A DNA stretch of 64,000 bases from an uncultured Chloroflexia bacterium (GTDB lineage Bacteria; Chloroflexota; Limnocylindria; Limnocylindrales; CSP1-4). Positions 17,182 to 39,134 of the stretch are shown here, one piece after another (the stretch's first letter is position 1; each line of letters begins with the position of its first letter). Position numbers and translations under genes: made by a program. The DNA lies in NCBI GenBank assembly GCA_963722105.1, contig CAVRKQ010000004.1:101759-165758 (forward strand), written 5' to 3'. The notes under the pieces were generated by a model. The model was not told the DNA's origin and made no database searches. It saw only the letters and a list, made by a program, of their open reading frames with translations.

Positions 17182-17255
17182 CGAGCGCGATTGTGCCGCA
17201 GCCGACGACGAGGCAAGCCGAGTCGTGGCGACGTTCGGCGTACGATCCTGACGCC

Positions 17256-19238
17256 ATGACCCAGACGCTCGAGGCCGGCAGGGACGCGGCGACGCGCCAC
17301 GACTGGGCGGCTGCCGTCGCTGCACTCACCGAGGCCGATCGGGACGGTGGACTGTCCGGTGAGGACCTCGAACTGCTCGGCACGGCGTCGTGGTGGCTCG
17401 CCAAGCCGGAGGAGTCCGCCGGGGTCCTCGAGCGCGCGTTCAACGCGTACTCGAAGGAAGGCCGTCGCCTCGACGCCGCCCGGGTGGCGATGAGCCTGGC
17501 CTACCAGGCGTATCGAGGCCTTTCGGGCCCGGCGGGCGGCAGCTGGTCGGCTCGGGCAGAACGTCTCCTCGCGAACGAGCCCGAGAACCGACTGCACGCT
17601 CGGGCTCTGATGTACCAGGCGCAGGCAGCGATCTACGCGGGCCGGCTCGATCAGGGCGTGGAGCTTGCCGACAAGGCGATCGAGATCGCGCGCCGTCACG
17701 ACGCCGCGGACGAGCTGCAGATGGCCATTTCATTCCGCGGCATCGCCAAGCTGTTGGCGGGCGATCTCGCGGCCGGGATGCAGGACATCGACGAGAGCGC
17801 CGCGGCCGCATCGAGTGGGCAGCTGGACCTCCGCATCTCGAGCGACATCTTCTGCGTGGCCATCGGAGGCTGCCGCAGGGTCGGCGACCTCGAGCGCGCC
17901 GGCCAATGGGCGGACGAGGGCGAGCGCTGGATGGAACGCAACGGCGCGGGTGGGTTCCCGGGCGTCTGCAAGGTCCACCGGGCCGAGCTCAAGATGTTCC
18001 GCGGCGACTGGTCGGGGGCCGAGCAGGAGGCCCGCGCGGCGTGCGACGAGCTCCAGCGGTTTCGCCTGCTCGATGGCCTCGGGTTCGCGCACAACGCGAT
18101 CGGGGAGGTTCGCCTGCGAATGGGAGATCTCGATGGCGCGGCGACCGAGTTCGATCAAGCCTACGAGCATGGTCACGACGCCCAACCGGGCCTTGCCCTG
18201 CTCCAGCTGGCTCGAGGCGAGATCGACGATGCGCGGCGCTCGCTGGGCCGGGCACTCGCCGGGGCGAGCGGCGGTGGCGGGCCTGCGGATCTTGCCAATC
18301 GGGCGAATCTCCTCCCCGCCCAGGTCGAGATCGCCCTCGCCGCGGGCGACCTCGATGCCGCCCGGGCGGCGGTCGAGGAGCTCGAGTCGATCGCAACTGG
18401 CTTCGAGCGACCGTTCTTCAAGGCCGGCGCCCTGACGGCTCGCGGCGAGCTCCTCCTGGGCGAGCGGAAGCCCGTCGAGGCGTCGCCCGTGCTCGATCAG
18501 TCGTGGCGGCTGTGGCAGACCCATGACCTGCCCTACGAGGCGGCTCGGGCCAGGCTGCTGTACGGCGAGGCGCTCGCGGCCGAGGGCGACCAGGCGATGG
18601 CCAGGCGCGACCTGCTCGCGGCGCGATCGACATTCGACCGACTTGGCGCGCGGCTGGACGTCGAGCGCGTCGACAAGCTGCTCGGTCCGGACGCGGGCAC
18701 GGCCGCGGCGGCCCGGTCCGGCGAGCGCGTCGAGCGGACCTTCATGTTCACCGACATCGTCGTCTCGACCGATCTCGTCGGGATCATGGGCGATGACGCG
18801 TGGGGCGAGCTCCTGCACTGGCACGACCGCGAGCTGCGGGCTTCCATCGCGGAGCACAACGGCCTCGAGGTCAGCCACACCGGCGACGGCTTCTTCGCGG
18901 CCTTCGACCGGGCAACCGATGCGATCGCCTGCGCCGTGGACATCCAGCGCCGGCTCGTGCGCCACCGGCGCGAGCATGGCTTCGCGCCGTGGGTCCGCAT
19001 CGGCCTGCACAGCGCGGAGGCCACGCGCGAGGGTGGCAACTATCGAGGCCAGGGCGTCCACGTGGCGGCGCGGGTCGGTGCTGCTGCCGATCGGGAGGAG
19101 ATCGTCGTCTCGAGCTCGGTGGTGGAGGCGGCCGGGCGCGTCCCGTTCGCGCTGTCCGAGCCGCGGTCCGCGAAGCTCAAGGGCCTGAAGGAGCCGGTCG
19201 AGCTGCGGTCCGTCGAATGGCGGGCCGCGCCACACTAG
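17256..19238 (+). CDS. TPR-like helical-repeat sensor domain fused to a class III adenylate/guanylate cyclase catalytic domain.
   Basis: About 480 aa of TPR-like helices, then RTFMFTDIVVSTDLVGIMGDDAW...HTGDGFFAAFDRATDAIACAVDIQRRL...RIGLHSAEA...YRGQGVHVAARVGAAADREEIVVS. The start is chosen at Met22 of ORF 17193..19238. Confidence 0.8.
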   Translation: MTQTLEAGRDAATRHDWAAAVAALTEADRDGGLSGEDLELLGTASWWLAKPEESAGVLERAFNAYSKEGRRLDAARVAMSLAYQAYRGLSGPAGGSWSARAERLLANEPENRLHARALMYQAQAAIYAGRLDQGVELADKAIEIARRHDAADELQMAISFRGIAKLLAGDLAAGMQDIDESAAAASSGQLDLRISSDIFCVAIGGCRRVGDLERAGQWADEGERWMERNGAGGFPGVCKVHRAELKMFRGDWSGAEQEARAACDELQRFRLLDGLGFAHNAIGEVRLRMGDLDGAATEFDQAYEHGHDAQPGLALLQLARGEIDDARRSLGRALAGASGGGGPADLANRANLLPAQVEIALAAGDLDAARAAVEELESIATGFERPFFKAGALTARGELLLGERKPVEASPVLDQSWRLWQTHDLPYEAARARLLYGEALAAEGDQAMARRDLLAARSTFDRLGARLDVERVDKLLGPDAGTAAAARSGERVERTFMFTDIVVSTDLVGIMGDDAWGELLHWHDRELRASIAEHNGLEVSHTGDGFFAAFDRATDAIACAVDIQRRLVRHRREHGFAPWVRIGLHSAEATREGGNYRGQGVHVAARVGAAADREEIVVSSSVVEAAGRVPFALSEPRSAKLKGLKEPVELRSVEWRAAPH

Positions 19239-22112: not shown

Positions 22113-22224
22113 CTCCTTCGCCGGCTACGCCAGGGTCACCTCGGGTTGAGACCGTAGCGCGCCAATGATTGCCTCGCCGCCCGCGTCTTCGATCATCTTC
22201 GGCATTAGCCGGCTCAATAGGCGT

Positions 22225-23245
22225 TCAGTTGCCGTCACTGACGCCCCAGGCAAGACCAAGGGCCTCGACACGAGCGATGAGCTCGACCGGGCTCGCCGTG
22301 GTGGCAAGGTCGCGCGCCAGGGCTATCGCGCGTTCCACGTTGATCCGCCCGCTCGGGTCGCCGATGTGGAACACGAGTTGGGCGACGCCCGCCATCTCGG
22401 CCGCAAGGATCTGGACCAGGGTCATCATCACGCGGTTGCCTCCGAACGCCCCGCCTCCCCAGAAGCCGGAGTGGATGGCGACAAGCGCATGTGGGCCGGC
22501 AGTTCGCCTCGACTCGAGGACCGCGGCGCGGAAACCCGAGTAAGCGGTGGCGAGTGCGAGATCGATCTGCTCCCGCTGATAGCGGCCGCGACCGCCGTAC
22601 GGGGCGGCGATCGCGAGGATGTTGGAGATCGTCGGCGGTTCGATCCGCGTCGTCGCCTCGCGAACGGCATCGGCGGTGGCTCTCGCGAATGCCATGCCGT
22701 AGAGCCAGCTCGGTCGGCCGCCGGCTGCCTCTGGGGCGGTCTGGAGGCTGAGGCGCCGCTCGGCTCCCAGGACGAGCACCGGCGTCGGACGACCGTTCGC
22801 GATGGTGGTGGCGGGTCGACCTTCCGCGACGATCGCTTCGCGGAGCGAACCGAGGCTCGGATGCTCTGCGACCTGGATCTCGTCCTGGGCGAACAGCACC
22901 GAGCCGTAGGCATCGAAGAGGTTTGGATCGGCGAAGTTGACGTGCCACTCGACGCCGACGCTCGGATCGAGGACCGGGCGGTAGTCGTACTAGCCGTCGC
23001 GAACCACCACGAGGCGGTCGAGGCCTACCGCGTCGAGCTCGAGCGGAACCGGCAGCAGGAGCCCCGGCCACCGGCTGTACTCGAGCTGGCCCGTATGGAT
23101 GGTGCCTGGGGGACACGCGATCGCGTACAGCCGCTGCTTGTTCTCGTTGCGGGAGCACCGCTGGGTGCTGTCGCACCAGCGCAGCCGCCTCGTACGTTCG
23201 CCGCTGAAGAGGCTCGGGGACGGCCGGATCCTGCGGCTCGGTCAT
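22225..23245 (-). pseudogene. Canonical (eukaryotic-type) poly(ADP-ribose) glycohydrolase-like macro-domain protein. It is disrupted by one frame change near 23180 and an in-frame TAG at 22990..22992. The catalytic Gly-rich/QEE loop is degenerate (QDE).
   Basis: C-terminal motif IHSGFWGGGAFGGNRVMMTLVQILAAEMAGVAQLVFHIGD matches PARG ...[38 protein letters not shown]. Upstream, VNFADPNLFDAYGSVLFAQDEIQV matches [24 protein letters not shown]. Lower GC than the flanks. Confidence 0.6.
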
Positions 23246-23289
23246 CTCCCCACCACTATCCGGCCGTCGACGGCCGGCCCCGCACCGTG

Positions 23290-24471
23290 TTAGGCCGCGT
23301 GGACGTTCCCGAGCCCGAATGGGGGAGGATCGAACCGCCGCAAGAGCGCGCCCACTTCCCCTCGTTCGATCTGGGGCCATGCGATGCTGTCGCCGAAGGC
23401 GGCGACCCCCATGCCCCGCGCCATACGGTCGGAACGGTCGGCGATCCTGATAATTTCATCGAAGACGTCAATGCCAAAAGGCTCCCGCCAGAACATTCCC
23501 ATATCGAGAGTGCGATCCAATTCGCTGAGGTGCGGAAGATGTGCGATCTGCCAGCGAACGGAAGCGACGGCCGCGGCGACCTCTGCCGCATCAATGCGCG
23601 ATGAGAATGCCGCTCGGAAGAAGGGCTTGCCGACGTCGCGTGAGGTGACGACCGCGACAAATTGCCCAGGCAGGGGCTCCACAGTCGCTGGGAACTCCCG
23701 CGACACGCTTCCGCGCTCGAGCCAGCCCATCTTCCGGGGAGCCGGAACGATCCACCGACACAACCTACCGGTTGCCTGTTCCGCTGCCCGTTTTCGATTG
23801 AGGTCATCCTCGTCGGCCTTTGCTCGCGTCCCGAGCCTGGTCATCGCCGCAACCCACGGGAAGAGGTCATCGGACCTCGTCGTGCGAGTCGGACCCGACG
23901 GTTCCCTGGCGAGCTCGCGGACCGCGCCACCAAGGGTCGTCTCCGATCGCAGGGCGGATGCAAACTTGGCTGCAAATCCGTCTCGGTATGCGTGACGCGA
24001 TTCGCGCGTCCCGCCTGCATACGCGTTTTGGCCTCGCCAGGGCCAGCTAGAGCCGAGCGCGTCCTCAGCAATCCCTGCGACGAAATCGGCCGATCCTGGG
24101 ATCTTCGAGAGGCCCCCTTCAGCGAGTGTGAGAGCGCCATAGAGAGCTGGGATGTGCGCTGCCAAGAGGACCGCAGCGACAGCTTGCGCCAGCTTCTCGC
24201 CGTCGGCTTCTCCCATCGCCTGGGCCGCAGCCGGGGATGGCAATTCTTTGCGTCGTTTCGCATCCGTTGCCATATGTACACCTCTGCTTTCGGACTGCGG
24301 TCTGGTCGCTGCCCGCATCCGCGCAACATCCGCGAGGGCCCGCTCTTTGCGACCTGCGATTTCGGCAGCCTCCTCCTCCGAATGCTCGGCCGGATCGTGG
24401 CTGTGGATCACACCGCTCTCGTGGCGATGGGAGTTCGCGATCTCGTCCAGGATGTCCCGTTTCTTGGTCAT
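23290..24471 (-). CDS. Uncharacterised 393-aa protein encoded immediately upstream of, and co-oriented with, the PARG-like gene. No recognisable domain.
   Basis: Long ORF in a lower-GC (A/T-containing codon) region where spurious ORFs are unlikely. Acidic N-terminus (HSEEEAAEIAGRKERALAD). Confidence 0.6.
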   Translation of the reverse strand: MTKKRDILDEIANSHRHESGVIHSHDPAEHSEEEAAEIAGRKERALADVARMRAATRPQSESRGVHMATDAKRRKELPSPAAAQAMGEADGEKLAQAVAAVLLAAHIPALYGALTLAEGGLSKIPGSADFVAGIAEDALGSSWPWRGQNAYAGGTRESRHAYRDGFAAKFASALRSETTLGGAVRELAREPSGPTRTTRSDDLFPWVAAMTRLGTRAKADEDDLNRKRAAEQATGRLCRWIVPAPRKMGWLERGSVSREFPATVEPLPGQFVAVVTSRDVGKPFFRAAFSSRIDAAEVAAAVASVRWQIAHLPHLSELDRTLDMGMFWREPFGIDVFDEIIRIADRSDRMARGMGVAAFGDSIAWPQIERGEVGALLRRFDPPPFGLGNVHAA

Positions 24472-24472
24472 C

Positions 24473-25433
24473 TCAAGTGTTCGAGCTCATGAGCTTGCGC
24501 ACCAACGGACTCGGTCCAACCTGGATCCCGTTGTGTGCGAGGGTCGCCTCAACCGCAGGCCGATCCGGTAGCACGAAAGTTCTTCCCGTGACCTGCTCGA
24601 CATAGCGCAGCTCTGCCTCGGCGGCCCGGGCGTGACCGCGATCGATACCGAGGCTCATGCAGTAGCAGGCCACGGCGAGTTCGTAGTTCGCATCCTCAAC
24701 CGCGAGGTAGCCCAAGTTCCGATAGCCGCGTGCGAGCGCGTCCACCGAATGAGCGACCTGCATGGCGTGAAGCGTCAATTCGCGCAGCTCCGACTTCCTG
24801 CCGGAAAGCTTCATGACCTCGCCCAGCTCAAACATGGCATAGGTACTTACCGGGTTGACGCGAAGCGCTTCTTTGAGCGACGCCTCAGCGCCATCCAGAT
24901 CTCGAAGCTCGATCAACACCGCGCCGAGGAGTGAGTAGAGCGTGGCGCGATCCTGAGGCAGCTTCCGCACGTGCCTTGTTGGCTGGTAGAGCTGTCCATA
25001 GATCGCCAGCTCGAAGGGGTTTGCGAAGTGGCGATATTCCGAGACGCTGTCGTCGACGTACAGGCCATTGCCAGTCCCGTATTGGCGGACCAGATTCTTC
25101 CAGCACGATCCGGGCCGTCGCGAAGTCGCCAGCGCCGATCTTCGCACGGGCTGCTGTCAGGCCTTGGTCAAATCCACGCTCGAAGCCGTCAGCAATCCCA
25201 TCGAACTTGACTCTCACGTCGGCCGGGGCGATCGCATGCAGCATGCGCCCAAGCTCGCGCAGGATCTCCTTGGCTTGGGGATGACCTCCGCACGATTGAG
25301 CGACCGACGTGATGAGGGCGCCGTCGTGCTTGAAGTCGCCGGTCAGACTGGCCGTGACTCCCGCGATGACCTCAGCGTAGGTTCGACCGGCAACGTCGGC
25401 CGGGCCGGCGCCGTTCACCATTGGATGCCTCAT
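24473..25433 (-). CDS. Uncharacterised helical/TPR-like protein, about 320 aa, with one frame change near 25090. First gene of the three-gene lower-GC island.
   Basis: Frame 24885..25526 (MRHPMVNGAGPADVAGRTYAEVIAGV...) joins frame 24473..25147 (...WKNLVRQYGTGNGLYVDDSVSEYRHFANPFELAIYGQLY...TPR-like LKEALRVNPVSTYAMFELGEV). Confidence 0.5.
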
Positions 25434-25479: not shown

Positions 25480-26376
25480 CTAAGGTCCCACCGCAGCCGA
25501 CGGCAGCCCGGGATCCGGCACGGCATCGGGGTGCAGCAGGTGGCCGAGCTGGCGGACGCCGTCGGCGAGGCGCGGGCCGGGGCGGGAGTAGTAGGCGTCG
25601 CCGTCGACGACGAGCCAGCGGGCGTTCGGGGCGATGCGCTCGCGGTCGAGGTGGGCGGAGCGACGGACAGCCTCGTCGACGTCGAAGCCGCACGGCGCGA
25701 TGACGACGACCTCGGGATCGGCGGCCGCGACGTCGTCCCAGGTCGTCGGGTGCGACGGTCGACCGGGCTCGCCGAGGAGGGCCTCGCCGCCCGCGGCCTC
25801 GATCATCTCGGGCAGCCAGTGGCCGGGCACGAACGGCGGGTCGATCCACTCGGCGACGAAGACCCGCGGCCGGCGGGCGCCGGCGCGGATGGCGGCGTCG
25901 GTGCGGCGTCGGACGTCGTCGATCGTCGCGCGCATCTCGCCGGCGACTTCCCTGCCCCGCTCCGGGACGCCGAGCCGCGACGCGAGCGTCTCGATCGATG
26001 CGGCGACCTCCTCGAGCGTCGAGGGGTCGAGCGAGATCACGGTCGCGCCGACCGGGCAGGCCGACCCGAGCTCGCCCGAGCTGACGGCGCAGACCGTGCA
26101 CAGGTCCTGGGTGACGATGACGTCCGGTGCGAGGCGCTCGATGAGCGCCGCGTCGACCGCGTAGAGGAGCGGCCGTCCCTGATCGCCTCGCGGACCTGGC
26201 GGTCGATCTCGACGCTCTCGAGCTCCGCCGGGTCGATCCGCGCCGCCGTCACGACCGGCAGGTGCTGCGACCTCCGGCGGGTAGGTGCACTCGTTCGAGC
26301 GGCCGACGAGGGAGTCGGCGAGGCCGAGGCGGGCGATGATCTCGGTGGCGGACGGGAGGAGCGAGACGATGCGCAT
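25480..26376 (-). CDS. BtuF/TroA-like (class III) periplasmic-binding-protein homologue, cobalamin/siderophore-type. No signal peptide. Two frame changes around 26230-26150.
   Basis: MRIVSLLPSATEIIARLGLADSLVGRSNECTYPPEV... then ...TAARIDPAELESVEIDRQVREAIRDGR in frame 26037..26627, then PLLYAVDAALIERLAPDVIVTQDLCTVCAVSSGEL. Confidence 0.6.
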   Translation of the reverse strand: MRIVSLLPSATEIIARLGLADSLVGRSNECTYPPEVAAPAGRDGGADRPGGARERRDRPPGPRGDQGRPLLYAVDAALIERLAPDVIVTQDLCTVCAVSSGELGSACPVGATVISLDPSTLEEVAASIETLASRLGVPERGREVAGEMRATIDDVRRRTDAAIRAGARRPRVFVAEWIDPPFVPGHWLPEMIEAAGGEALLGEPGRPSHPTTWDDVAAADPEVVVIAPCGFDVDEAVRRSAHLDRERIAPNARWLVVDGDAYYSRPGPRLADGVRQLGHLLHPDAVPDPGLPSAAVGP

Positions 26377-26500: not shown

Positions 26501-27585
26501 ATGCGAGCTCTGTCGTTCCTGACCACAGCCGGCCTGCTCCTGATCGTCGCGTGCGGCGGCCCGACGGGCCCAACTGCGAGCTTCCCCGCAGCGACCACGT
26601 CCCCATCGGCCTCGGCGCCGGCCGCAAGACCCGAGGAAAGCCCAGGACCCCTCCCCACCGAGCTCGTCCTCGGCCAGACGTTCGGGCTCTTCTACGACCC
26701 GCAGATCGAGCGCGTGGTCCTCGTCAATGGCGCCCAGGAAACCGGCCCTGCCATGCCGACCGAGCTGTGGAGCTGGACAGGCACCGCCTGGGAGCTGCTC
26801 GATGCGGCCGGTCCAGAGGCACGCGGATTTGCGGTCGATCGGCCGGGATCCGGTCCGCAATGTCGTCGTCGTGCATGGCGGGATCTCGAGCTCCGGGACG
26901 GCGTTCGACGAGACGCTCGAGTGGGACGGCCGCGATTGGACCGTCCATGTCGCCGGCGACGCTGGGCCGGGTGCCCGCGAAGGGGCTGGTCTCGCCTACG
27001 AACCCGACACGGGACGGATGCTCCTCTTCGGCGGCGCGGTCGGGTTCGAGCAACGGGCCGACACGTGGGCGTGGGACGGCGAGACCTGGTCCCTCGTCAC
27101 GCAAACCGGCCCGAGACCCCGTTTCGTCAGTCTCATGACCGAGGATCGGGCCACCGGTGATGTTCTCCTCCAGGGTGGACACTGGGTCGCCGGCAACGAT
27201 GGCGACTTCCTGGCCGACACCTGGCGCTGGGACGGCGATACCTGGATCGAGATCACGGGCGGCGACGGGCCCGGAAAGCGCGTGAACGCGCCAGGAACGT
27301 GGGACGAGCGGCTCGGAGGGATCGTCATGTTCGGTGGCGGGGTCGGCGAGCGTGAGCCCAATGGCATCCGACACGTGGCTGTGGACGGACGGCTGGACGG
27401 AGCTCGCGTTGGCGACAGCGCCCACACCCAGAGGTGGGCACCAGGTTGCGTTCGATGCGAAGCGCCAGGTGCTCGTGCTCGTTGGCGGGATCGCGGAAGC
27501 GGGTGGTAGCCAGATGCTCGACGTCTGGGAGCTCGATGCGGACGGCTGGAACGAGGTGCTCCGTGCATCGTCGCCGTCAACCTGA
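26501..27585 (+). CDS. Kelch-repeat beta-propeller lipoprotein with two frame changes, near 26850 and 27340.
   Basis: Lipobox LLLIVAC. Repeated xTWxWDGxxWxxV modules (TWAWDGETWSLVTQTGPRPR, DTWRWDGDTWIEITGGDGPG, DTWLWTDGWTELA...PTPRGGHQVAF, DVWELDADGWNEV) spread over three frames. Confidence 0.6.
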
Positions 27586-27661
27586 GGGCGACGGCGAGTC
27601 TCCGTGGCGAATGGAAGCAACGACCGAGGTGCGACATCGGGAGCCAAAATTGTCATTGCCT

Positions 27662-28600
27662 TCAATCGGAGGGCTTGCCTTGGAACACGCTGGCGAGATG
27701 AAATCGCAGGTATTCCGGGTGCGGCCACAACGCCTGGGCTCTCGGCGGGATAAGCGGAAGGTTCTCGACGAGCCCAAGCGTCACCCCGCGGCCAGGAGCC
27801 GCAGTCATCGATGTTTCGAGGTTTGGCGACCGGCGAAGGCGGGGCGTGCCGTCTACGTATTCAAAACCAATGAGCCCGCTGTCAAACAGTCTGTGCACTG
27901 TTGGGGTCATAGGCAGACCATTCATGACCAAGTCCGGCCCGCCGGCCAGAACCGGGCGGATGTGCGCGGCGTCCAGCAGGCGCTTGGACTTGATCGTGCG
28001 ATTGCCCCGATGCCGAGGCCGGTAATTGCGCAGCGGTAGTTGTAGGCATCGAGGACATCGCGACGGAAACTCGCTGCGCGTACGAACGACTCGACCAGCG
28101 CCTCAGACCTCTCGCGGGCGACCACCTTCGCATCGGCGGCGTGATCGAGCTGTGGATACTCGGTCACCATTGGAAGCTGCGCATTAGCAAGAGTAAGAAG
28201 GATCGTCGCCAGATCTGAAATCCGTGAGCGGGCGGACCGCACGGCCGACTGTTGCGACATTCCGTGCTCGTCCGCGATCCAGCGACTGCAGCCACGACTC
28301 CACTGGTTGACCAGCGCATTCTCGAGGCACCGGTGTGTCGAATGGCTCTGCCGATCGCCGGTAGTTCACGCGCCAGAGTGACGCACCGGCCTTGCTCTTG
28401 CGAGCCGAGATCTCGGGTTCGCCAACGATTTCCGCAAGCGCCACGTACGCCATGCGACCGCGGCCGGTGTTACCTCGAGGCTCGTAAATGACCGCATAGA
28501 GCGGCTTCTCGCCGTTTGTGCGCTCGAAAAAGCGCAGATACCTCGCCGGAAATTCGTAGGACGACGGGCTGTCGTCATATTCAGAACCGATCTCTGATTT
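27662..28600 (-). pseudogene. HNH-family restriction-type endonuclease remnant with at least 2 frame changes and no in-frame start. It lies in a short lower-GC patch.
   Basis: ...YEFPARYLRFFERTNGEKPLYAVIYEPRGNTGRGRMAYVALAEIVGEPEISARKSKAGASLWRVNYR... | ...DVLDAYNYRCAITGLGI | KSKRLLDAAHIRPVLAGGPDLVMNGLPMTPTVHRLFDSGLIGF (HNH motif). The parts lie in three different frames. Confidence 0.55.
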
Positions 28601-28670
28601 CCAGTGAGACAGCCGGCATGGTCGAGCTTACCGCGAGCGGCCAGCGGGAAGGCTATGTCCCATGAATCCC

Positions 28671-29684
28671 TCAGGCGAACAGGCTCGCGTACCCATTGAT
28701 CGCCGGCTGCCCACCGAGGTGCGCATACAGCACGTTCGATGACCGCTCGATCTCCCCGCGGCTGACGAGGTCGATCATCCCGGCCATCGACTTTCCCTCG
28801 TAGACCGGGTCGGTGATCATCGCCTCGAGGCGGGCGGCGAGGCGCATCGCCGAGAGGGTCGACTCGTCCGGGATCCCGTAGATGCCGGCGTGGTAGCGGT
28901 CGTCGAGGAGGATCTCGTCGTCGCGCAGGTCGCGCCCGAGGCCGATCGCCTCCGCCGTGAAGCGCGCGATCCGGGCGATCTGGTCCCGCGTCTCGGCGGG
29001 CTTCGCGGACGCATCGATCCCCAGGATCCGCCGCTCCCCCGCCCCGGGCCGGTCCGCGAACCCCGCGATCATCCCGGCCTGGGTGGAGCCCGTGACCGAG
29101 CAGACGATGATCGTGTCGAAGAACACGCCGAGCTCGCGCTCCTGGACCTCGACCTCGCGGGCCCACGACGCGAACCCGAGGCCGCCGAGCGGATGGTCGG
29201 ACGCTCCCGCGGGAATCGCGTAGGGCTTGCCGCCGCCCGCCTCGACGTCCGCGAGCGCCTGCTCCCAGCTCTCCTTGAACCCGATCCCGAACCCGGCCTT
29301 CACGAGCCGCACGTCGGCGCCCATCAGCCGCGACAGCAGGATGTTGCCGACGCGGTCGTAGGTGACGTCGGGCCAGTCGACCCAGCTCTCCTGCACCAGC
29401 ACGCACTTGAGGCCGGCCACGGCGGCCGCGGCCGCGACCTGGCGGGTGTGGTTCGACTGGACGCCCCCGATCGAGACGAGCGTGTCGCAGCCCTGCGCCA
29501 GCGCGTCGGCCACCAGGTACTCGAGCTTCCGCGTCTTGTTCCCGCCGAACGCGTACGCCGAGTTCAGGTCCTCGCGCTTGGCCCAGAGCGTCGCGCCGCC
29601 GAGGTGCTTCGTCAGCCGCTCGAGCTTCTGGATCGGCGACGGCCCGATCAGGAGCGGAAAGCGCGGGTAGTCCTCGAGCCGCAT
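28671..29684 (-). CDS. acdS: 1-aminocyclopropane-1-carboxylate deaminase (PLP-dependent AcdS/DcyD family). Residues favour AcdS over D-cysteine desulfhydrase.
   Basis: [30 protein letters not shown]...[43 protein letters not shown]...[13 protein letters not shown]...[15 protein letters not shown] is near-collinear with Pseudomonas AcdS. Confidence 0.75.
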
Positions 29685-38376: not shown

Positions 38377-38475
38377 GCCGGCTCAACGCGCGGTCATCAG
38401 GCTGCGACCCTCCGGCCTCGTTGACATACCGCCGGGTCGAGAGCCATACTTTGCGTTGTCAAGTAGGTATCGAAG

Positions 38476-38742
38476 GTGGCATGCATGGCGAGCACGGTCG
38501 GCGAGCGGGGCCAGGTCACGATCGAAAAGGCGATTCGCGAGGAACTGGGCGTCTACGCGGGGGATGTCGCCGTCCAGCGGGTCGAGGACGGCAAGGTCGT
38601 GATCGAGTTCGTCCCGGCGCCGCATCGCCGCTCGCTTGCTGGCGCGCTGCGTGACAAGGTCGGTCGAATGCCGGCGGACCAGACGTGGTCCGCCCTTCGA
38701 CACGTCGCGGAGAGCACGCCGGATCCGGATCGCAAGCCTTGA
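38476..38742 (+). CDS. vapB: AbrB/SpoVT-domain type II antitoxin.
   Basis: MASTVGERGQVTIEKAIREELGVYAGDVAVQRVEDGKVVIEFV is a swapped-hairpin fold. Its stop overlaps the downstream TTG start. Confidence 0.65.
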   Translation: MACMASTVGERGQVTIEKAIREELGVYAGDVAVQRVEDGKVVIEFVPAPHRRSLAGALRDKVGRMPADQTWSALRHVAESTPDPDRKP

Positions 38743-39134
38743 TCGGGGTCGATACGTCGGTCGTCGTCCGCTATCTCGTCGGCGAGCCGCCCGACCAGGC
38801 CAAGCGGGCGGCGGTGATCATCGACGGCGACGCGGACGTCGGGATCTCGATCCTCGTGATCGTCGAGGCCGCGCACGTCCTCCGTTCGAACTACGAGCTC
38901 GCCCGCTCGGACATCCTCGACGCCCTGATCGACCTCGTGTCGAGGACGAATCTCATCCCGCTCGAGCTCTCGAAGGCGGATGTCATGGACGCCCTCGTGC
39001 GCGCCCGCGCGTTCCCCTCGTCGCCGCTCCAGGACGCGCTCATCGCGGCCAGTGCGCGCGCATTCGGGGCGCTGCCGGTCTTCACGTTCGACGAGCGCTT
39101 CGGGCGGCTCGGATCCGCCGTCGCCTCGCCCTAA
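38739..39134 (+). CDS. vapC: PIN-domain toxin VapC (TTG start).
   Basis: (M)IGVDTSVVVRYLVGEPPDQ...ILVIVEAAHVLRS...ALPVFTFDERFGRLG. Confidence 0.7.
   Translation: MIGVDTSVVVRYLVGEPPDQAKRAAVIIDGDADVGISILVIVEAAHVLRSNYELARSDILDALIDLVSRTNLIPLELSKADVMDALVRARAFPSSPLQDALIAASARAFGALPVFTFDERFGRLGSAVASP

Follow-up and report, generated by a model that had tools for sequence, protein, structure and literature searches.

A disrupted PARG-like macro-domain gene and a low-GC islet in an uncultured Chloroflexia bacterium: probably two unrelated units side by side

Three co-oriented, abutting coding regions lie on the minus strand at about 22225-25433 of a 64,000-nucleotide stretch of DNA from an uncultured Chloroflexia bacterium (GenBank assembly GCA_963722105.1, contig CAVRKQ010000004.1, positions 101,759 to 165,758; this whole stretch is called the window below). 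The first encodes a macro-domain protein resembling poly(ADP-ribose) glycohydrolase (PARG), the second a protein of 393 amino acids (aa) and the third a protein with tetratricopeptide repeats (TPR). An earlier note on this DNA proposed that the three form a horizontally acquired module of low G+C content (GC) for ADP-ribose processing, and the question raised by the locus is whether the genes belong together and what the PARG-like protein is. The coding regions themselves were confirmed in a listing of open reading frames (ORFs) and by three-frame translation. They are separated by gaps of 1 nucleotide (nt; TPR and 393-aa genes) and 44 nt (393-aa and PARG-like genes), and the reading frames of two of the three, the PARG-like and the TPR gene, are interrupted. 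The locus is rather probably made up of two unrelated units side by side, a broken PARG-like gene and a low-GC islet with the TPR and 393-aa genes. Region 22225-23245 is best read as a disrupted copy of a broad, uncharacterised bacterial family resembling eukaryotic PARG, standing alone and forming no module with its neighbours, and the islet at 23290-25433 as a decaying remnant of mobile DNA beside it.

Base composition divided the locus in two. The background GC of the window was 0.705 +/- 0.028, measured in 1-kb windows. The PARG-like gene was indistinguishable from this background, with a GC of 0.690 (z = -0.54) and a GC at third codon positions (GC3) of 0.82, whereas the GC of the 393-aa gene (0.640) and of the TPR gene (0.623) fell in the lowest 3% and the lowest 1% of 1-kb windows, respectively. 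GC3 in the latter two genes was 0.70-0.75, compared to 0.89-0.98 in the neighbouring genes. The low-GC segment excludes the PARG-like gene, because the GC of that gene matches the background and the drop in GC and GC3 is confined to 23290-25433. The islet proper (23290..25433, strand not assigned) has a GC of 0.633, in the lowest 2% of 1-kb windows. The low-GC island of three genes described earlier thus holds for the 393-aa and TPR genes and not for the PARG-like gene. The same applies to horizontal acquisition as judged by composition, with foreign GC in the two upstream genes and native GC in the PARG-like gene. In line with native status, the neighbour genes of the PARG-like gene were found to recur, reshuffled, around its homologue in locus L019. 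The window contains no tRNA, and neither an integrase near the islet nor a convincing flanking repeat could be identified. A 48-nt direct repeat that brackets the three-gene block (22157-22204 and 25767-25814, 81% identity) was considered and set aside; it is probably due to chance, because the similarity stops there and the implied peptide match has an E of 0.14. Its upstream copy lies within a Peripla_BP_2 gene.

For a comparison of gene context, ORFs were called up to 5 kb to either side of the PARG-like gene and clustered; the 83 loci used came down to 80 once duplicates were merged. The proposed three-gene module did not survive this comparison of synteny, in which no conserved partner was found in the 80 loci. 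Apart from shadow ORFs, no neighbour family occurred in more than 9 loci, and those 9 were all from Actinomycetota/Coriobacteriia. The contexts of close homologues were wholly different, with MFS transporters, an aminotransferase, a TetR regulator, toxin-antitoxin genes and CHAT. For the 393-aa protein, the context was readable at two homologues, neither of which had a PARG-like neighbour.

The product of 22225-23245 was found to be of the PARG class and nearer to the eukaryote-type PARG than to the bacterial DUF2263 type, as had been supposed, by profile, PDB-sequence and fold searches alike. In the profile search the window fragment matched Pfam PARG_cat_C (PF05028) with an E of 1.7e-9 and 38.1 bits, above the gathering cut-off of 26.3. 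All 37 aligned homologues matched PF05028 alone (best E 4e-12), over profile positions 115-197 of 207 only, and no Pfam match to DUF2263 (PF10021), PARG_cat_N or PF01661 was seen at E <= 1 in these 37 family members. Canonical PARGs (rat, mouse, human and Drosophila) were the sole significant sequence matches in the PDB; phmmer with a single protein gave an E of 1.6e-5, and hmmsearch with the family profile gave 3e-7. Alignment of the family profile to the human PARG catalytic domain by hhalign gave a probability of 95.9% with only the C-terminal 83 columns aligned; over the aligned stretch, the human sequence used agrees with the PDB sequence matches. An AlphaFold2 model was built on the intact orthologue P0002, which is 87% identical (predicted local distance difference test, pLDDT, 76; predicted template-modelling score, pTM, 0.84). 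When this model was compared to the PDB by Foldseek, canonical PARGs filled the top 42 places (E 5e-8 to 1.5e-6), with template-modelling (TM) scores, by query, of 0.40-0.54. The bacterial-type PARG of D. radiodurans (5zdc) came at rank 44 with an E of 1.6e-3.

Significant homology to canonical PARG is limited to the C-terminal half of the protein, from NIIAIAAP to HIGD. The C-terminal block quoted in the earlier note, IHSGFWGGGAFGGNRVMMTLVQILAAEMAGVAQLVFHIGD, is present in the sequence, and the diphosphate-binding loop with the start of the following helix, HSGFWGGGAFGGNRVMMTL (22414..22470, minus strand), is the sole motif with significant sequence homology to canonical PARG. Together with the LVQLLAA helix behind it, the loop aligns with the PARGs of human, mouse and rat; in the window copy it reads WGGGAFGG, with G at the family-invariant C264. 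The quoted upstream block, VNFADPNLFDAYGSVLFAQDEIQV, is likewise present, but its claimed alignment to the catalytic loop of PARG had no statistical support. The loop-1 region of the macro domain to which it points, VNFADPNLFDAYGSVLFAQDEIQVAEHP (22851..22934, minus strand), has a family-invariant Q-D-E and E-H-P and no GGG. In the family, loop 1 follows the pattern NFAD-x3-F-x-x-Y-x5-A-Q-D-E-x-Q-x-A-E-H-P and reads F-[YVF]-A-Y-G-S-x-L-F-A-Q-D-E-[MI]-Q-V-A-E-H-P, with FAQDE in place of QEE. Residues Q120, D121, E122, H128, P129 and F110 were found in 80 of the 80 loci, and E127 and Y113 in 79, at identities of 46-87% and across many phyla. None of these loop-1 residues was among the search patterns used to collect the loci. 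Such invariance argues for a putative active site, though not of the canonical PARG signature: GGG-X6-8-QEE does not occur in loop 1, which has no glycine triplet and a Q-D-E instead. In the model, loop 1 is placed topologically as in PARG, the strand VEWHVNFA leading to the loop and then to a helix. A phmmer search of the 82-aa loop region against the PDB found no PARG. Sequence homology of the catalytic loop to that of PARG was rejected, as the N-terminal halves scored below the shuffle mean by Smith-Waterman and hhalign aligned the C-terminus only. The identification as PARG is correct in class and was over-read in detail.

Several points weigh against this reading of the protein and of the locus. 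The equivalence of the catalytic loop to that of PARG rests on order and secondary structure and is not significant by sequence, the TM-scores to PARGs are modest, and the pLDDT of the model falls below 50 right at both functional loops (residues 117-126 and 263-268). The lack of GGG may point to another ligand, or to a protein that binds but does not catalyse, and catalysis is a prediction for every member of the family. The lesions are read from the consensus sequence alone, whether biological or not. Finally, two further genomes, L014 and L016, also have a co-oriented TPR-module gene upstream of the PARG-like gene, at a distance of 1.9-2.8 kb.

Comparison with known systems gave a similar picture. 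With canonical PARG (PF05028; human, mouse, rat, Drosophila and Tetrahymena structures) the family has in common the macro-domain fold, which is its best structural match, and a homologous C-terminal half, in which a near-identical diphosphate loop is followed by a helix L-x-Q-x-L-A-A. It also has a Gln-preceded acidic pair in the loop after the strand x-[DN]-F-A-[ND]. The bacterial family differs in its size of only about 339 aa, in the undetected PARG_cat_N, in its Q-D-E without GGG compared to the Q-E-E of PARG, in an N-terminal half without significant sequence similarity, in a TM-score of only 0.40-0.54 and in its bacterial host, where no PARP gene is linked to it. The bacterial-type PARGs (DUF2263, PF10021; T. 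curvata, D. radiodurans DRB0099 and S. coelicolor SCO0909) are also single-domain bacterial macro-domain proteins of the PARG class and often stand alone, but DUF2263 was unmatched in the 37 members and the fold of the D. radiodurans enzyme matched at only 1.6e-3 against 5e-8 for canonical PARG. MacroD-type proteins (PF01661) are alike in the general macro fold, with weak Foldseek matches to viral macro domains and YmdB. They differ in that PF01661 was unmatched and that the loop motifs of the PARG-like family are of the PARG type.

The PARG-like gene (22225..23245, minus strand) starts at ATG 23245 (MTEPQDPAVPEPLQRRTYEAAALVRQHPAVL) and would comprise about 339 codons once repaired. It has two lesions. 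A +1 frameshift at 23151..23153 (minus strand) consists of an extra C in a CCC run, compared to the CC implied by the homologues P0001, P0002 and P0040 (HPAVL|RNENKQ), and an in-frame TAG at 22990..22992 (minus strand), one base from TAC, stands where the homologues have a Tyr (VRDG[Y]YDYRP). The longest uninterrupted ORF is 224 aa (22225-22899) and is 100% identical to the deposited protein P0004. Intact homologues of 339 aa are 80-87% identical to the product. The TPR-module gene (24473..25433, minus strand) would have about 315-320 codons once repaired and is also frameshifted, by an extra A at 25095..25096 (minus strand; +1) that gives GAAGAATCTG compared to the GAAGATCTG (LEDL) implied by homologues. 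Either the PARG-like copy became a pseudogene very recently, or the gene is intact and the consensus sequence is in error.

That the frameshifts and the stop are consensus errors of long-read metagenome assembly, with both genes intact in the organism, was regarded as a serious possibility, somewhat short of even. Lesions aside, the PARG-like copy is conserved like intact members of the family: it departs at two columns of >=95% conservation (E61G and C264G), compared to a family median of 1.5, and relaxed constraint on this copy was rejected since its conserved-column departures are no more than in other members. In each frameshift one base has been added to a short run (CC to CCC and A to AA), but one lesion is a substitution and not an indel. 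Many related loci come from the Nanopore-only Microflora Danica metagenome-assembled genomes (PMC12313526), copies of which are also out of frame at the N-terminus of P0021 and in the TPR genes of L088-L090. Against such errors, TPR homologues from Joint Genome Institute (JGI) assemblies are frameshifted too (P0150 and P0154). Within about 6 kb of the window there is a cluster of four lesions, of which the PARG-like gene has two and the TPR gene and an HNH_2 gene have one each, and this clustering does not favour assembly error. Nor does the rest of the window, in which ORFs as long as 1,072 aa are uninterrupted. Four further pairs of suspected split genes were in fact normal adjacent genes, and a general mis-assembly of the window was accordingly rejected.

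Two observations on reading frames elsewhere may be added. In P0021, from loci L003 and L013, residues of about 9-30 of the PARG-like homologue are out of frame and the frame is then regained (PAAAYVRGGCSWLDSTRPVL compared to EPLQRRTYEAAELMRQHPPVL), which implies paired indels in another long-read metagenome-assembled copy. Genes of the TPR family are unusually often frameshifted in public assemblies (L088 1500-1900, L089 1450-1800 and L090 7850-8150; P0150-P0154), which may be due either to errors of sequencing in variable low-GC regions or to true decay. A programmed frameshift in the TPR gene was considered and rejected, as the break points are scattered over residues of about 50-131 with no single conserved site (L088-L090, P0150-P0152 and P0154).

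The PARG-like family was found to be uncommon but broad, and its description as rare in bacteria was overstated. More than 1,346 proteins matched at E <= 1e-3. The best 120 of these were mostly of about 339 aa and all had PF05028; some are labelled PARG by JGI. A pattern scan of one genome per species found a relative encoded in 296 genomes of many phyla, including Chloroflexota (many of them 'Candidatus Limnocylindrales'), Planctomycetota, Acidobacteriota, Gemmatimonadota, Actinomycetota/Coriobacteriia, Bacteroidota, Synergistaceae, Hydrogenedentota and Myxococcota, the last with the cultured myxobacterium Pyxidicoccus fallax DSM 14698 (L086 8001-8978). NCBIfam has no model for the family, and a literature search turned up no paper on a bacterial PARG-like family of about 339 aa. 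Reviews equate canonical PARGs with the eukaryotic enzymes and bacterial PARGs with the DUF2263 type (PMC8120803, PMC4245714). It is suggested, tentatively, that the family of about 339 aa is an undescribed third branch of the PARG class, with a eukaryote-type fold and diphosphate loop and a loop 1 of its own, spread over at least 8 phyla and possibly distinct in substrate or mechanism. Its substrate could be, for example, ribose-linked ADP-ribosyl RNA or DNA, or another nucleotide conjugate. The family could also be the bacterial sister group that gave rise to eukaryotic PARG. A broad bacterial family nearer to eukaryotic PARG in fold and diphosphate loop would bear on the origin of the eukaryotic erasers of poly(ADP-ribose), and likewise on the range of stand-alone 'immunity' hydrolases directed against ADP-ribosylating toxins. 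The re-designed catalytic loop heightens this interest, and biochemical study of the family would be worthwhile. Little is added by this one locus, where the copy is broken or mis-assembled, with no linked writer and with unrelated low-GC cargo beside it.

A mode of action can be proposed for the family. The conserved diphosphate loop, together with the PARG-like fold, implies that the macro domain would bind ADP-ribose through that loop. The invariant Q-D-E/E-H-P loop implies catalysis, for which acid/base cleavage would be the simplest form: the Asp/Glu pair may act as acid and base to cleave a ribose-linked (O-glycosidic) ADP-ribosyl bond, as in PARGs. No dedicated writer gene is linked to the PARG-like gene, and its product may be a lone repair hydrolase or an 'orphan immunity' hydrolase acting against ADP-ribosylation of protein or nucleic acid. 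Stand-alone bacterial PARGs were recently shown to be protective hydrolases against ADP-ribosylating toxins (PMC11833690); a lone gene, often amid accessory genes such as toxin-antitoxin pairs and CHAT, would fit such a role, which is borrowed here by analogy from the DUF2263 group. It seems doubtful that the family is instead something other than a PARG-type glycohydrolase, namely a non-catalytic reader of ADP-ribose or an enzyme for another nucleotide conjugate. Such an explanation would agree with the absence of GGG-X6-8-QEE, with aromatic residues (F110 and Y113) at the expected glycine positions, with an N-terminal half without significant sequence similarity to PARG and with the undetected accessory domain PARG_cat_N. 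Two points speak for a PARG-type hydrolase: Q-D-E and H-P never vary across phyla, as expected of a catalytic site more than of a reader surface, and the diphosphate-binding loop hardly differs from that of PARG.

The 393-aa ORF of the islet is present, and no Pfam domain was found in it, as in the earlier note. Its 66 N-terminal codons (24274..24471, minus strand) form a separate module that also heads unrelated proteins, and the remaining 327-aa core (23290..24273, minus strand) is an orphan, mostly helical with one alpha-beta-beta-beta-alpha unit. The N-terminal module (MTKKRDILDEIANSHRHESGVIHSHDPAEH...) was found at the N-termini of the otherwise unrelated proteins P0163 (243 aa) and P0167 (138 aa) at 55-66% identity, the former with 66% over residues 4-71, and both match this module only. 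The deposited annotation of the ORF (P0121) begins at M67 and skips the module. A word-indexed search gave 2 homologues of the 393-aa protein, and 18 matches were returned when 1.84 billion representatives were searched exhaustively with HMMER; the 327-aa core defines this small family. In one member, P0155, the core is followed by a C-terminal region with homology to a 271-aa ORF of L014 (6877-7692), so that genes around the TPR gene may draw on a common pool of shuffled cassettes. The AlphaFold2 model of the core (23293-24273; pLDDT 86, pTM 0.81) is helical apart from the alpha-beta-beta-beta-alpha unit, and Foldseek found nothing below an E of 0.46. The best of the non-significant matches were mitoribosomal mL44, Dcr1, T. 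maritima RNase III, Drosha and dsRBD3 of ADAR1, and the RNase III/dsRBD matches fall on the alpha-beta-beta-beta-alpha unit (residues 184-245 of the model). An AP2-like or dsRBD-like reading of the beta-beta-beta-alpha part was rejected, the RNase III/dsRBD matches being non-significant. The idea that a writer of ADP-ribose is among the two other proteins was not supported, because no ART, PARP, DarT or sirtuin fold was seen in the 393-aa model by AlphaFold2 and Foldseek.

The TPR-like nature of the third protein was confirmed, Pfam TPR_8 being matched with 27.5 bits (cut-off 25.7) and related models as well. About 30 homologues were found, 315-320 aa if intact and 64-76% identical. They lie near rve integrases, a Replic_Relax-Resolvase protein, an N6/N4 methylase, a small terminase (Terminase_4), an IS110 transposase and toxin-antitoxin genes, as would fit genes carried by mobile elements or prophages. 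The TPR module forms the C-terminus of a 985-aa ORF in L014 (3187-6144) and of a 757-aa ORF in L016 (2949-5222). The 315-aa module was also observed as the constant C-terminus of longer ORFs with varied N-terminal parts in P0125, P0130, P0132 and P0146. One of the N-terminal parts of the long TPR ORFs has parallel beta-helix repeats, and others have a common 'ASxRDGSAWxGDAK' domain. Some TPR homologues have a C-terminal extension ending in a hydrophobic stretch that resembles a membrane anchor. Searches of PADLOC, PHROGs, NCBIfam and Pfam with the three proteins and their longer relatives gave only generic TPR and beta-helix matches beyond the Pfam results above, and none in PADLOC. We infer that the islet genes come from a variable pool, associated with mobile elements or prophages, in Limnocylindrales-like Chloroflexota, and that they are functionally untied to the PARG-like gene.

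PARG-like genes are missing from five of the eight TPR contexts (L005, L006/L007, L088, L089 and L090). In the other three, namely the window, L014 and L016, such a gene follows 1-3 kb downstream in the same orientation, so that the window is not the only place where the two are neighbours. Between the two genes lie a 141-aa and a 271-aa ORF in L014, and a LysM-amidase gene on the other strand and a 261-aa ORF in L016. Since L014 and L016 have a rearranged region in common, they are not independent observations. Nearer relatives of the window PARG-like copy (L008, L009 and L013) have no TPR gene. The co-location of the TPR and PARG-like genes was taken to reflect a neighbourhood specific to the lineage, next to a variable insertion region, rather than a functional module.

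A diversifying conflict locus of Limnocylindrales, made up of the TPR-module protein, variable cargo and the PARG-like gene as its constant end, is an unlikely alternative to two unrelated units. The PARG-like gene does lie downstream on the same strand, with different genes between, in three of the eight TPR contexts, but two of these share the rearranged region and the nearer relatives have no TPR gene. The flanks beyond the pair are unshared between the window and L014/L016, and the TPR module is fused to varying N-terminal domains, as might be expected of such a locus; the compositions of the TPR and PARG-like genes differ, and the PARG-like gene stands alone at most loci in all phyla. That all three genes are one horizontally acquired ADP-ribose module, with the PARG-like protein reversing a modification written by the 393-aa or TPR protein, is very improbable: co-orientation, tight spacing (1 nt and 44 nt) and the upstream TPR-module gene in L014 and L016 are set against the native GC of the PARG-like gene but not of the other two, the absence of a 393-aa homologue near a PARG-like gene in any readable context, the absence of both partners from 78 of the 80 PARG-like loci, intervening genes that differ among all three genomes having the TPR and PARG-like genes, a 393-aa model without an ART-like fold, and the lack of a PADLOC match.

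Other genes were seen near the PARG-like gene in some of the 80 loci. In L001 (10421-11996) a pair consisting of an ARPP-1 (PF20208) gene and a MacroD-type Macro gene lies 1.4 kb downstream of it. A MacroD-type gene stands directly beside it in L008 (1189-1737), and a broken one is near it in L083 (5379-5942). MacroD-type neighbours in 3 of the 80 loci give a weak hint that ADP-ribose-processing genes cluster. Five Chloroflexota loci (L001 9865-10380, L003 13429-14238, L043 6845-7561, L083 12524-12964 and L084 13192-13938) encode a protein of about 240 aa with the motif 'ALYIDFEGxKDxPPxLLG ... RIVSWSEHDLNVVRTL' at most 5 kb from the PARG-like gene; no Pfam match was recorded for the L003 copy.

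A second low-GC islet was observed in the window at 27250-28900, with a GC of about 0.62, the lowest in the window. It contains an HNH_2-type endonuclease gene split by a frameshift, near 27920-27935, into two ORFs on the minus strand (27662-27931 and 27922-28260). The C-terminal ORF matches PF13391 at positions 46-66 of 66, and the N-terminal one carries the start of the domain, YNYRCAITGL. At 38467-39134 on the plus strand an ORF for a MazE-like antitoxin overlaps an ORF for a PIN-domain toxin, an ordinary toxin-antitoxin pair. The plus-strand region 17193-19238 encodes a C-terminal adenylate/guanylate cyclase domain behind a MalT-like TPR region, and a sequence at 1617-2351 on the minus strand was judged by eye to be cyclase-like.

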